Source: a virus
Virus genome (UHGV): UHGV-1372840
Reading direction: 5' to 3' (one strand)
DNA: 48,653 nt
Of the stretch, positions 2,034 to 46,168 are shown in pieces; position 1 is the first letter of the stretch, and every line of letters begins with the position of its first letter. The notes under the pieces are model-generated. The model saw nothing but the letters and a program-made list of their open reading frames with translations, was not told the DNA's origin and did no database searches. Position numbers and translations under genes: made by a program.

Positions 2034-3122
2034 TTATTTAAGTTTACCAGTCTGACGCAGCAGTGCTTCTTGTGCGCGGGACAGTACAGGTTTTGCGTCG
2101 GCTACCGGCTGTTTGATGTCTTTAGCGCCATCTTTAGCCAGTTGCTCAAGCTGTGAGTCTACCACAGGTTTCACCGGTTCTTCCACAGCCATGTCGAAAG
2201 CGGCTTCAACATAGGCGGCAGATTTTTCGGCCCAGTCAACAGACGGACGTTTAACAGCGAGAGCGGCACGTTTGATTGCAACCGGGTCCATGCTGTCACA
2301 GGTGAATTCATCGCCAGCAACTTTACGCGCCGAGGAGGTAACACGTGCAATTGCTTCCACGCGTGCTTTCAGGGCTTCGTCGCTGCATTTGGTGGTCAGG
2401 TCGGCAACCTGTTCCAGTGCTGCGTCGAGTTGGGCCTGTACGGTTTCTTTGGCGGCTTCGGCGTCACTGACACGCTGTTCTAAGCGTTTGAACGCGTCCA
2501 CCACCGCAGCATCCGCCACATCAACTTTTAGCCCGGTGTCAGTGGTGATTTGATACATGGGTTTTTTCTCCATATTATCGAAGATACGCGCCATTGCACC
2601 CGCACGAGCACGGTCAACAATTGCAACGTGGTTAATTTTAATCTGAGTCTGTCGGAAGTCGTATGGTTCACCTTCCGGCGTTGTCCCTGGTGTATCATCA
2701 TACACCGCCGTGTAACCCGCTGACAACTCACACTTACCAGTTTCAACAGCCTTAATCGCGTCTTTATCCTTGATAACCATGTCCACAACGACGAAATCGC
2801 CATCCTGACGACCGACACTCGTTACAACACCAACGGAAGTGTTACGGTACGTGGAAGCATTGATAAGTGTAGGAGGATGGTTATTCGTGACATCTGCGCC
2901 GAGATAGCTCTGAAGTGATTCATTGTTGAACACTTCTTCGGCGGGACGGTACACACGGATAATGTCGTTCGGTGCGCGGTCTTTTAGCCCCAGTTCCGAA
3001 GCGAGATACTCCTGGATACCAGTACGAGCGGCTTTACCTGGCACACGCAGAAATCCCTCATCCGTGTAAACACGTTGGGAATTCAGTGCAAAACTTTTAC
3101 GGTCATTAATGGTAATTTGCAT
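2034..3122 (-). CDS. Putative prohead protease/scaffolding protein (DUF2213/XkdF-like N-domain plus coiled-coil C-terminus)
   Basis: 362 aa. N-terminal globular half, C-terminal Ala/Glu/Lys-rich predicted coiled coil (AEAAKETVQAQLDAALEQVADL...). Sits directly upstream of the decoration and capsid genes. Confidence 0.5.
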   Translation of the reverse strand: MQITINDRKSFALNSQRVYTDEGFLRVPGKAARTGIQEYLASELGLKDRAPNDIIRVYRPAEEVFNNESLQSYLGADVTNNHPPTLINASTYRNTSVGVVTSVGRQDGDFVVVDMVIKDKDAIKAVETGKCELSAGYTAVYDDTPGTTPEGEPYDFRQTQIKINHVAIVDRARAGAMARIFDNMEKKPMYQITTDTGLKVDVADAAVVDAFKRLEQRVSDAEAAKETVQAQLDAALEQVADLTTKCSDEALKARVEAIARVTSSARKVAGDEFTCDSMDPVAIKRAALAVKRPSVDWAEKSAAYVEAAFDMAVEEPVKPVVDSQLEQLAKDGAKDIKQPVADAKPVLSRAQEALLRQTGKLK

Positions 3123-34056: not shown

Positions 34057-34396
34057 TCTCGGTCACCGTTAATAATCCGTAGGAGGTCAACACGCTGGCG
34101 GTGACCGTATAAGTTTTGTTGTCGATGTCGAAATCGGTGCTAAAACTGGTTAACTGCAGGACACCCGGAGTACCGGAGATGCGTTCACGGAGGCGTGCTT
34201 CGCGGACATCCATGGAAGTTTGTTTGTCGAGTATCTCCTGAAACCACGGTGTGCCGTCAGTCACATCCCGGAAATACTCACCCAGAAACAGGCGCAGACG
34301 GGTACGTATCGTCTGCTCTATTTCCAGTTGTTCAGTGATAAACATCGAACCCTGAGTAACGATGTCACCATCTTCATCTAATTTACGTACTGTCAT
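34049..34396 (-). CDS. Baseplate wedge protein (gp25/W-like)
   Basis: 115 aa in the V-W-J order. Confidence 0.45.
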   Translation of the reverse strand: MTVRKLDEDGDIVTQGSMFITEQLEIEQTIRTRLRLFLGEYFRDVTDGTPWFQEILDKQTSMDVREARLRERISGTPGVLQLTSFSTDFDIDNKTYTVTASVLTSYGLLTVTENG

Positions 34397-35130
34397 CAGT
34401 TATTCGGCCCCGTATTAGAACCACCGGAAGCAACGCCGCCGTGGGTGTGTCCGTCAATTTCTTTACCGTTTAAAATAAGTGAACCAGGGGCGACAATATT
34501 ACCATCTTTATCAATTGTCACCCCGTTGATATTTGCGGTTCCATCTGCGAGTAATGTCACGTGGCCATTTGCATTTTTAATCATACATGACGTATCGTTT
34601 TTTAACCAGACGTACTGTGATGCGTCCACGTTGCGCAAGCGAATACCATCATTAACGAAACCGGCTATGAGGTTATCAAGTGAACGAATTCCCGGTACAA
34701 ACATTGCGTCCTGTTTGTGGTGAAAGCGTTTGACGGGATTAGCAGCAATGCCGCCGGTCTGCTTCCATCCATCAATGCAACGTTGACTAAAATGTACCAT
34801 GCCCTCACAACCGGGTTTAATCTCGAACTCCAGTACGAAGTCATCGCCCGGGAAACTTACGGGAACGTCCACGATGGGTGGTGGGTCAAACGTAGTTTTG
34901 GCGACATCATCGGTCCGGGTGATTCCCAGTTGAATTTGTGCGCGCTGCGTATCCGGGTCGAACGTCAGCACGTAACCCGGGATGCACGTATACACGTCCT
35001 TCATGTTCTCGAAAAACGTGTCATTGGTGACGTTCTGTAAAAACGAGCGGCGCTGGTTAATGTCGGTCATGTCGCCCTCCTGTGAAAATAATGTCAAGTA
35101 TACTATTGACACTCGCGTCAAACAATGCAA
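34396..35130 (-). CDS. Baseplate central spike (P2 gpV / Mu gp45-like)
   Basis: 244 aa. C-terminal beta-helical spike repeats and a terminal H-x-H-GGV motif. Confidence 0.5.
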   Translation of the reverse strand: MHCLTRVSIVYLTLFSQEGDMTDINQRRSFLQNVTNDTFFENMKDVYTCIPGYVLTFDPDTQRAQIQLGITRTDDVAKTTFDPPPIVDVPVSFPGDDFVLEFEIKPGCEGMVHFSQRCIDGWKQTGGIAANPVKRFHHKQDAMFVPGIRSLDNLIAGFVNDGIRLRNVDASQYVWLKNDTSCMIKNANGHVTLLADGTANINGVTIDKDGNIVAPGSLILNGKEIDGHTHGGVASGGSNTGPNN

Positions 35131-35592
35131 TTATTTATTCACAGGCATGTAGCACATGTGTCTTTAGCGGTCCGGGGTGTCCTATTCCTTCGCATCAGCG
35201 GGTAGCCGGAATGTGTAGCCAGGCATGCACGAATGCGGTTGGTCACCGTGGCGGTTCGACTAATACAACAGGTGAGCGTATTGGGTAATGTCAGCCCTGG
35301 TTCGAAGTCGAAAGACATGCGGTAATACCCAGCCCAGGTTCCAATACGCTCACCTGTTGTAACCCCCGAGGAGGTGGTCAACATCTTGCTGACGGGTAAG
35401 CCGTAAGTGACTGGAGTAATGTTGTGAAACATAACAACAGTTGCGAAATGGTTTTCGGATAAAAGCATTGCTCTTGTTCATTAGTAGGTCCCACGACTCA
35501 AACCCAAACGATGAAATCAGTGCTTTTAACAGTAAACCATAATCTCTCTGTTGTGCTCCTGCATGTTTGCCCCGTACTCCGGGGCTTTTTTT
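35106..35592 (+). ncRNA. Candidate noncoding or antisense RNA unit inside the tail operon
   Basis: Palindromic promoter TTGACActcgCGTCAA with -10 AATTAT. 19 bp perfect inverted repeat (35266-35284 / 35341-35359). Terminator GCCCCG-tactc-CGGGGC-T7 at 35569-35592. No ORF with an RBS. Confidence 0.4.
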
Positions 35593-36241
35593 ACAAATCC
35601 AAAAGTGTCGTAACCTGACCGGCAACATTCGTTGCGGCTGTCTTTACGTTAATGTAACCACGCTCAATCAGTCCGGATATGGAGGTGCTGGAAACGTCGT
35701 TACTGTTTAGCTGATACTGTGCCGGTTGTGAACCGTTCGCCACGCGGTCAAGTGTGACAATCTGTTGCAGTTCAGCAACAAATATCAGTCCGTTCTCATT
35801 CTCCGGGTCTTTAGAGCGCCCGATACGCTGAATGACCATGTTGTTCAGCGTAATTTCACCCGTATCCACTGTGAATACCTGCCCGGAATACATGAAATCG
35901 AGCAAAGTGTTCAGTGTCGTACTGGAGCGAGTCTCATTTGAGCCGCTCAACCATCCCGCGAACAGACCAGCACCCGTGGCAATAAATGGGTTGTCATCGA
36001 CGAGATTTGTCAACGCCCCGGTGAAATCGGTGATACTAACTTTCAACGGGTTGTTCGATACCGCACCCGTCATCGTGTAACGAATAGGCTGATAAATGAT
36101 GTGGTCAGCAATTGGCGTACCTGTTTCAATAGGGTACTGCACAATGTCCACGCTGGCGTCAAGGTCATCAGACAGGACGGCATCGAACTGAAGCGACCCA
36201 AGCTGTGGACCGCGCTTTACCAGAAGGTTAATTAAACTCAT
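35591..36241 (-). CDS. Putative baseplate protein
   Basis: 216 aa in the baseplate region. Confidence 0.4.
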   Translation of the reverse strand: MSLINLLVKRGPQLGSLQFDAVLSDDLDASVDIVQYPIETGTPIADHIIYQPIRYTMTGAVSNNPLKVSITDFTGALTNLVDDNPFIATGAGLFAGWLSGSNETRSSTTLNTLLDFMYSGQVFTVDTGEITLNNMVIQRIGRSKDPENENGLIFVAELQQIVTLDRVANGSQPAQYQLNSNDVSSTSISGLIERGYINVKTAATNVAGQVTTLLDL

Positions 36242-46038: not shown

Positions 46039-46168
46039 AATTATACGGTAGTACACTATAATTATATTGTACTACAAAGTTGTTCACTTTTTGATCGGAA
46101 TGAAATTATACGGTAGTACACTATAATTATATTGTACTACAAAGTTGTTCACTTTTTGATCGGAATGA
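46039..46168. repeat. Tandem 2 x 65 bp direct repeat, each with an internal palindrome GTAGTACA-N13-GTACTAC
   Basis: Exact duplication of ATTATACGGTAGTACACTATAATTATATTGTACTACAAAGTTGTTCACTTTTTGATCGGAATGAA. Confidence 0.85.

Follow-up and report, generated by a model that had tools for sequence, protein, structure and literature searches.

The 48,653-nt virus genome UHGV-1372840, hereafter the window, comes from a JD001-like Jedunavirus of Klebsiella and has a 520-nt gap in its tail operon (35071-35590), which is filled by the plus-strand noncoding cassette described here. The tail genes on the minus strand are contiguous on either flank of the gap, with a gpV-like spike gene (34396-35070, minus strand; PF18352 and an Apex motif) on one side and a Dit-like gene (35591-36241, minus strand; PF21821) on the other. 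The Dit-like gene and its homologues are labelled "tail fiber protein" in several records. Some records place spurious "hypothetical protein" calls over the noncoding gap, which is blank in nearly every other record. The sequence of the gap is identical (100%) to that of phage phiYH65, and none of its open reading frames (ORFs) matched a PHROG or Pfam family. The initial annotation of this locus had proposed a noncoding RNA unit inside the tail operon. An independent noncoding unit is indeed present on the plus strand; however, it is not a single hairpin and consists of at least four conserved modules.

The unit runs from its own promoter to its own terminator. The sigma-70 promoter (35106-35134, plus strand) is composed of a −35 element TTGACA (35106-35111), a 17-nt spacer, and an extended −10 element TGcAATTAT (35126-35134). 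It scored 10/12 and was the top scorer in a 20-kb scan, with a predicted transcription start near 35141. The promoter overlaps a TTGAC-N6-GTCAA palindrome (TTGACACTCGCGTCAA, 35106-35121), and the window has 15 sites of this palindrome with at most one mismatch, against 2.3 expected. Most of these sites are followed by a −10 element, spaced as in the cassette. The cassette promoter belongs to a repeated promoter family of the phage itself, and the palindromic-operator promoter of the initial annotation is real. In prophages, homologous −10 regions (GCAATTATT) lie upstream of the first module, module A. Upstream of module A copies, a promoter of at least 9/12 was found on the same strand in 42%, on the opposite strand in 10%, and at a control position in 0%. 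At the other end, the intrinsic terminator GCCCCG-tactc-CGGGGC (35569-35585, plus strand; stem 35569-35574/35580-35585) is followed by U7 (35586-35592), just as had been described before. The terminator and the preceding segment CUGUAAACCAUAAUCUCUCUGUUGUGCUCCUGCAUGUUU form a conserved 3′ tail (35529-35592, plus strand), which no Jedunavirus gap lacks, even the minimal one of 288 nt. This tail has the look of the 3′ end of a small RNA (sRNA). An Hfq-dependent trans-acting sRNA would have a Rho-independent terminator with a U tail behind a single-stranded seed, Hfq binding, and mRNA targets; of these, the terminator with U7 and a conserved upstream segment are seen in the sequence. The expected transcript is ~450 nt (~35141 to ~35590) instead of the ~480 nt estimated initially.

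Module A (35143-35262, plus strand) is a pseudoknotted 5′ domain of 120 nt. Helix P1 (35143-35151 with 35155-35163) is closed by a GCA triloop, and helix P2 (35176-35180 with 35192-35196) presents the loop CCUAUUCCUUC with a conserved YCCUU. The invariant segment AGCGGGUAGCCGGAAUGUG follows at 35197-35215. Helix S1 (35235-35238 with 35246-35249) and the pseudoknot helix S2 (35240-35244 with 35258-35262) together make an H-type pseudoknot. We evaluated this structure in an alignment of 31 non-redundant copies (A5), using 500 shuffles and slid pairing partners as controls. Paired cells amounted to 93.7%, against 78.6% in the shuffles (0/500 as high), and both-sided changes occurred at 15 pairs. 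The covariation score was 0.48, compared with 0.19 for the shuffled alignments and at most 0.10 for the slid partners. RNAalifold on raw MAFFT alignments recovered the structures in part. A covariance model of module A (R1) gave 99 bits for the window and 110 bits for an unrelated 61.6-kb Klebsiella phage (L009). Exact copies of the module A 16-mer occur in more than 118 IMG/VR viral contigs, which is a lower bound, and the module is ~72% identical in a Stenotrophomonas phage, in E. coli prophages, and in plasmid-borne prophages of Klebsiella. A scan of genome contigs with the same 16-mer returned mostly chance matches, with true A copies at 4 of 120 loci (Kosakonia and Klebsiella).

Module H (35264-35361, plus strand) is a scaffold hairpin. 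Its arms (35264-35284/35341-35361) form a perfect 21-bp stem around a 56-nt cargo loop (35285-35340), which contains an inner helix CCUGG/CCAGG and a GUC-GAAA-GAC hairpin. The initial annotation had already reported the perfect stem and the 56-nt loop, which are present at 35266-35359, although it gave the stem as 19 bp. The repeat in question, CAACAGGTGAGCGTATTGG, 56 nt and CCAATACGCTCACCTGTTG, had 0 matches in 100 shuffles, and in its extended form of 21 bp it is the longest perfect non-palindromic inverted repeat of the window. The fold of module H has a z of −8.4 relative to shuffles. The 96-nt H element is ~90% identical in the unrelated phages Skate, seszw, and PJN025 (Salmonella) and LASTA (Klebsiella), and likewise in the N4-like E. 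coli phages PhAPEC5 and St11Ph5. These homologues show compensatory changes in the stem and one compensatory change in the cargo helix, and the cargo of the window type is nearly invariant across hosts.

The wider H family comprises 76 unique hairpins, with 53 different stems that show compensatory changes and with at least 37 unrelated cargos, seven of which contain T-loop-like GUUCRA hairpins. All H hairpins within 1 kb of a module A are located downstream of it (72/72), and 67 of the 72 fold on the strand of module A only, owing to G.U pairs. In L009, module A is directly followed by the hairpin with the window's own 56-nt cargo; therefore the A-H block moves as a unit. In Pectobacterium phage PEAT2 (L019:996-1090), the H slot is occupied by a 41-nt mini-hairpin on a CAACAGG base, which is tandemly duplicated along with its 3′ linker. 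Module D (35461-35527, plus strand) is a second scaffold hairpin, in which AAAAGCAUUG (35461-35470) pairs with CAGUGCUUUU (35518-35527). Its inner stem GCAUUG...CAGUGC is common to the H family, its cargo is confined to close relatives, and its fold has a z of −3.7 relative to shuffles. Modules H and D are members of one family of scaffolds with variable cargos.

Module C (35368-35446, plus strand) starts with a 12-nt super Shine-Dalgarno (SD) segment (GAGGAGGUGGUC, in DNA GAGGAGGTGGTC; 35368-35379). A hairpin ACGG-GUAAG-CCGU (35392-35404) comes next, and then a helix (35407-35412 with 35439-35444) that encloses another helix (35416-35423 with 35428-35435) capped by the GNRA tetraloop GUGA (35424-35427). 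The 12 consecutive bases of the super-SD pair with the 3′ tail of 16S ribosomal RNA (rRNA), with −22 kcal/mol in the window. The mean of this duplex in the module C family is −17 kcal/mol, compared with −5.7 kcal/mol when shuffled. Earlier it had been stated that no ORF here has a ribosome-binding site. There is no conserved ORF, but the SD-like segment is very strong and precedes only a 6-codon mini-ORF starting with TTG. In an alignment of 46 non-redundant copies (A6; 500 shuffles), the two module C helices were 95% and 91% paired, and double-change cells numbered 146, against 49.5 in shuffles (0/500 as high). Modules A and C are at least two new motifs supported by covariation. The exact 18-mer of module C occurs in more than 118 IMG/VR viral contigs (a lower bound), and the module is ~80% identical in E. 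coli prophages and in phage-plasmids of Enterobacter and Salmonella. The junction between modules H and C has a C-tract, which is C5 in the window (35363-35367) and C8 in Klebsiella phage P5026.

The functional strand is supported to be the plus strand, because G.U accounts for ~15% of the paired cells of module A, pairs that would be mismatched if the other strand folded, and because the H hairpins near module A show the strand preference given above. Compensatory changes on one strand, as expected of a structured noncoding RNA, were found in module A, module C, and the H stems. Rfam returned no relevant match. With Rfam 15 over the whole window there were 0 matches at gathering thresholds, and between 34900 and 35800 at E ≤ 10 there were only chance-level ones, the best being mir-556 with 21 bits (gathering score 84). 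On 14 homologous loci, Rfam found only true transfer RNAs (tRNAs) and sub-threshold matches to DicF, RprA, and small-subunit (SSU) rRNA fragments. The core sequences of the modules were not found in searchable literature, and papers on Jedunaviruses are silent about the region and describe the phages as having no tRNA genes. The catalogue of viral structured RNAs of Fremin (2023) has unnamed candidates that could overlap with the cassette, and it has no searchable supplement. Pas sRNAs were considered as well and are unrelated to the cassette.

In sister phages of the genus, the length of the gap varies between 288 nt (RCIP0080) and 1004 nt (RCIP0033). The promoter, the 120-nt module A, and the final 60 nt, which include the terminator, stay constant, and the middle is swapped by whole modules. 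The middle slot holds differing hairpins with unrelated loops on a shared CAACAGG...CCUGUUG base, module C is present in some gaps and absent from others, and module D is replaced in other Jedunaviruses by a tRNA-like module (GUUGUGGUG...CACCACAAC) or a small hairpin. The exception to the constant module A is RCIP0033, where an HNH homing-endonuclease gene (L021:950-1531; PHROG 1872, E 9e-29) takes its place directly after the cassette promoter; therefore the locus is targeted by mobile insertions. In Klebsiella phage P5026, an unrelated 180-nt insert (L016:866-1045) separates the promoter from module A.

The same modules are exchanged between unrelated phages. Searches with the prophage versions reached mEp390, phiV10, SPN1S, the Stx2c and cdtI phages, HK633, and 9NA, as well as jumbo Klebsiella phages and N4-like phages by the dozen. 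In these searches, scaffold halves are 97-100% identical over ~38 nt. Modules are also carried by epsilon15-like phages and by N4-like Gamaleyaviruses, and the named phages with modules A and C belong to many families. The hosts of the cassette family are Klebsiella, Escherichia, Salmonella, and other Enterobacterales, and two records are of Stenotrophomonas phages. The position of the cassette varies: it is in the baseplate operon, between portal and terminase genes, or downstream of cI. Its modules go unannotated in hundreds of unrelated phages and prophages, where tRNA genes are often adjacent.

Relatives of the cassette are physically linked to tRNA genes. In the prophages, the order is promoter, module A, a small hairpin, module H, then tRNA-Arg(UCU) or a tRNA-like scaffold, a terminal hairpin, and the terminator. 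Among 121 unique contexts of module A, 16 have tRNA-Arg(UCU) ~170 nt downstream on the same strand, and none has a tRNA upstream of module A or on the opposite strand. In Skate, LASTA, and PhAPEC5, the H element sits in an unannotated stretch with a tRNA gene downstream on the same strand. The downstream tRNAs of the relatives are tRNA-Arg or tRNA-Ile. One prophage (L085:898-944, minus strand) has a tRNA-like scaffold with a 47-nt mimic of 16S helix 11 at the position of the anticodon arm, which matches the Rfam SSU model with 33-38 bits (E 1e-7).

An rrn boxA (UGCUCUUUAACAA; TGCTCTTTAACAA), perfect or nearly so, occupies a fixed position in 8 of the 114 homologous cassettes. It lies at +125 to +132 from the module A 16-mer (L048 and seven other loci), preceded by a small hairpin, which suggests antitermination of the NusB/E type for these putative untranslated transcripts. 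The resemblance to boxA in the window's gap is only 9/13 (TGCTCTTGTTCAT, 35469-35481) and lies inside the D stem. DicF-like terminal modules are found at L085:774-823 (minus strand) and L047:802-854 (minus strand), with 22.7 and 27.7 bits against a gathering score of 48. The boxA, the helix-11 mimic, and the DicF-like end of the relatives are hallmarks of stable-RNA operons. A BLAST comparison of the cassettes with the E. coli rrnH operon recovered boxA and, for the modules of the window itself, revealed no significant mimicry of rRNA; a 10-nt match (GCGGUAAUAC) to the 16S 530 loop is within chance. In Stenotrophomonas phage BUCT708 (L015:3190-3309), an RprA-like segment is seen just downstream of module A, with 50 bits (gathering score 70; E 0.0013).

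We consider it reasonably likely that the gap is an autonomous noncoding stable-RNA operon, an "RNA moron", whose products would act in trans, with the translation or tRNA machinery as the probable target. Host RNA polymerase would start near 35141 at the sigma-70 promoter of the phage family and stop at 35585-35592. The predicted product is an early-made structured RNA of ~450 nt, built as a chain of independently folding and exchangeable modules (A, H, C, D, and the 3′ tail). In this RNA, module A would hide the 5′ end in a hairpin, and the long stems of H and D would display variable cargo loops. Module C (including GGAGGUGGUC) may bind the 30S subunit via its long complement to the 16S 3′ end. 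The primary transcript would probably be cut at the 19-22-bp stems by RNase III and at tRNA-like junctions by RNase P/E to give stable small RNAs, by analogy with homologous cassettes in which these slots hold tRNA-Arg or tRNA-like scaffolds. The small RNAs could then act in trans by binding 30S subunits or by mimicking tRNA or rRNA, with translation tuning or a nuclease decoy as possible purposes. A decoy role is plausible because phage tRNAs neutralise tRNA-cleaving defences (PMC11464382, PMC11555353).

Several observations weigh against the stable-RNA operon or limit what it explains. ARAGORN found 0 tRNA or transfer-messenger RNA (tmRNA) genes in the window, and the gap has no match to RF00005 at E ≤ 10. 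No tRNA-like module is seen in the window's gap, so the tRNA link rests on the relatives. The nearest-neighbour fold energy of module A is no better than that of shuffles (z = +0.27). This energy is unremarkable because the fold is pseudoknotted, and the support for module A comes from covariation, not energy. In module C, a helix first proposed around the SD-like segment was rejected, since it was 76% paired and showed no covariation. The way the homologues were collected partly forces the invariance of the 16-mer core of module A and the 18-mer core of module C. The decoy and ribosome-binding roles are conjecture, and no partner protein was identified. Transcription and processing, here and in the homologues, are deduced from sequence.

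The alternative that survives best is the antisense role suggested in the initial annotation. The RNA would pair with the spacer of the read-through tail mRNA, and RNase III or transcription collision would time or uncouple the spike gene and the downstream baseplate genes. The geometry holds in this phage. A promoter scan found no minus-strand promoter inside the gap before the spike gene, and the terminator hairpin has no T-run on the minus strand, so transcripts of the tail operon must cross the gap. Several prophage copies, located between portal and terminase genes, are antisense as well. However, this orientation varies within the family. Of the 48 homologous cassettes whose flanks could be used, both neighbours are co-directional with the cassette in 26 and antisense to it in only 9; in N4-like phages and Lastavirus the modules are co-directional with their neighbours. 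The modules are up to ~90% identical where same-strand genes or tRNAs flank them, and covarying helices, a pseudoknot, and a GNRA loop serve no obvious purpose in a perfectly complementary RNA. We therefore regard the antisense role as doubtful; antisense regulation is at most a local side effect and not a feature of the family. The cassette behaves as an autonomous moron, because its sites vary and most of these contexts (26/48) are co-directional.

The linkage to tRNA genes allows another explanation, in which the cassette is the remnant of a decayed tRNA cluster. The promoter, leader, and terminator would have survived, and the RNA would have no role of its own. This would fit a window without a tRNA whose homologous cassettes carry tRNA-Arg(UCU) or adjoin tRNA-Ile or tRNA-Arg genes. 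A remnant is nevertheless unlikely. Modules A, H, and C are under purifying and compensatory selection without a tRNA (105 of the 121 unique A contexts), the H cargo hardly changes from host to host, and all inspected genomes of lytic Jedunaviruses retain the promoter, module A, and the 3′ tail.

The H hairpin might instead be selfish mobile DNA, similar to a miniature inverted-repeat transposable element (MITE) or associated with homing, and the gap a tolerated hotspot without a function for the phage. The near-identity of the 96-nt element between unrelated phages, the acceptance of an HNH endonuclease gene and a 180-nt insert, and a stem that can be read as TA-flanked terminal inverted repeats all favour this. 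The features of a MITE were not found, however: module H is single-copy in the window, with one copy per genome and no dispersed copies, and the comparison with RCIP0080 shows no target-site duplication at the boundary. Genomes without the 56-nt cargo keep a smaller hairpin on the same ACAAC...UGU base, and the place and strand of the hairpin are fixed relative to module A. The stems covary and wholly different cargos are carried under one conserved stem, a pattern that fits a scaffold and not a transposon end. We rejected the selfish-DNA explanation as having little chance of being right.

A DNA-level element, such as a pac or cos site, a terminus, a replication origin, or a recombination site, is still less probable. 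The GenBank records of JD001 (JX866719), KB2 (MT757392), 1611E-K2-1 (MG197810), and KLPPOU148 (NC_071128) begin or end inside the gap, three of the four at the T-run of the terminator. These breaks at a hairpin and homopolymer are probably artefacts of assembly or linearisation, because fixed termini are reported to be lacking: the terminus analysis of Jedunavirus IME346 found no fixed ends (PMC9007800), and we rejected the terminus idea. The G.U-dependent pairing on one strand and the pseudoknot point to RNA instead of duplex DNA, and the modules occupy many differing genome positions in other phages. A small protein is scarcely credible, be it the 109-aa minus-strand ORF (35139-35468) or the mini-ORF, and we rejected it: although the minus strand is unusually stop-free across modules A and C and a TTG lies 11 nt downstream of the super-SD, the ORFs have no family match, the homologues open in differing reading frames, the internal gap runs of the module A alignment are not multiples of three in 157 of 170 cases, the module swaps of sister phages abolish the gap ORFs, and some module C copies have TGG or CGG in place of the TTG.

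Among known systems, the cassette appears to work most like the tRNA and stable-RNA clusters of phages, and its design recalls the loci of bacterial Y RNAs and a tRNA scaffold engineered for RNA expression. Examples of such clusters are the tRNA region of T4, which encodes the species 1 and 2 RNAs, and the M3 RNA of phi80; these are short untranslated phage units that yield several small stable RNAs, some of them tRNA-like, from one precursor. The unit in the window is likewise untranslated and runs from promoter to terminator. It differs in having no tRNA, and modules A, C, and H have no relation in sequence or in Rfam to those RNAs. We know of no description of modular cargo exchange under conserved stems in phage stable-RNA clusters. 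In kind it is a phage stable-RNA cassette, set apart by motif families that are new and by a modular build that is unusual.

Bacterial Y RNAs (YrlA/YrlB, Yrn1/2) have a module with a long closing stem, in which a T-arm may be included, and are made in polycistronic precursors with a tRNA (PMC4201824). Several module types stand side by side there, as in the window cassette. The H cargo segment GUCGAAAG fits the motif GNCGAAN0-1G, and GGUCCGG resembles GGUCCGA. These echoes are short, internal, and not conserved across the H family, whose other cargos lack GUCGAAAG. A scan of 10 of the 15 window ORFs that are ≥330 aa long, and of the two genes flanking the gap, found no Ro60/Rsr (TROVE) domain, and no TROVE gene is annotated in the sister phage Geezett. 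The YrlA/Y_RNA model had no match at E ≤ 10 in the gap or at E ≤ 1 in the relatives. We rejected membership in the Y RNAs, as neither a TROVE gene among the scanned ORFs nor a model match was found.

The engineered tRNA scaffold was devised for recombinant RNA expression (Ponchon and Dardel; PMC3753655). In the relatives, a tRNA-like frame with an acceptor stem and D- and T-like arms carries foreign RNA at the place of the anticodon arm, and in the window the H and D hairpins likewise show variable cargos on a constant stem. Unlike the engineered construct, the window cassette is natural and its hairpin scaffolds are not tRNA-like, and its stability and processing are predicted from sequence.

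DicF in the dicB operon of Qin (Rfam RF00039) is alike in being a promoter-to-terminator insert between phage genes with an sRNA-like 3′ end. However, the 3′ tail in the window is not DicF-like, and the cassette has several domains and far exceeds typical sRNAs in length. GOLLD (RF01998) and ROOL (RF03087) are large structured noncoding RNAs of phages and prophages, often beside tRNA genes. The cassette differs from them by having no Rfam match, by its hosts among the Enterobacterales, and by being a chain of swappable modules instead of one architecture.

A more tentative possibility is that enterobacterial phages share a natural modular "RNA display". Scaffolds headed by module A might express interchangeable cargos that mimic parts of translation (T-arms, 16S helix 11, SD/anti-SD) and decoy ribosomes, tRNA-processing enzymes, or immune nucleases that cleave tRNA or rRNA, and the cargos would be swapped like defence and anti-defence genes. 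If these RNAs do bind ribosomes or decoy defences, they would be a new class of RNA factors for host takeover or anti-defence. Tracking of the cargos could then help to explain phage host range, and the scaffolds could offer a natural chassis for stable RNA expression. Phage annotation is almost entirely protein-centred, and this family of RNA cassettes is widespread in phages and prophages, including phages relevant to therapy. Covariance models can be built from the alignments, so that the family is searchable straight away.

The palindrome at the cassette promoter recurs at 3122, 4530, 6673, 13842, 16574, 17577, 20171, 22917, 35106, 46196, and other positions. In the form TTGAC(G)-N4/6-(C)GTCAA, it is usually the −35 part of a TTGACG-N4-CGTCAx-N7-(−10) promoter. 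The set looks like a phage-wide family of promoters and operators to which a phage regulator may bind, and the annotation of the sister phage Geezett includes a TetR-like protein. A separate 28-nt near-palindrome (GTAGTACACTATAATTATATTGTACTAC) occurs twice in the window (46048-46075 and 46113-46140), with 37 nt between the copies and an overlap with a TATAAT box, and the pair looks like a candidate operator pair.

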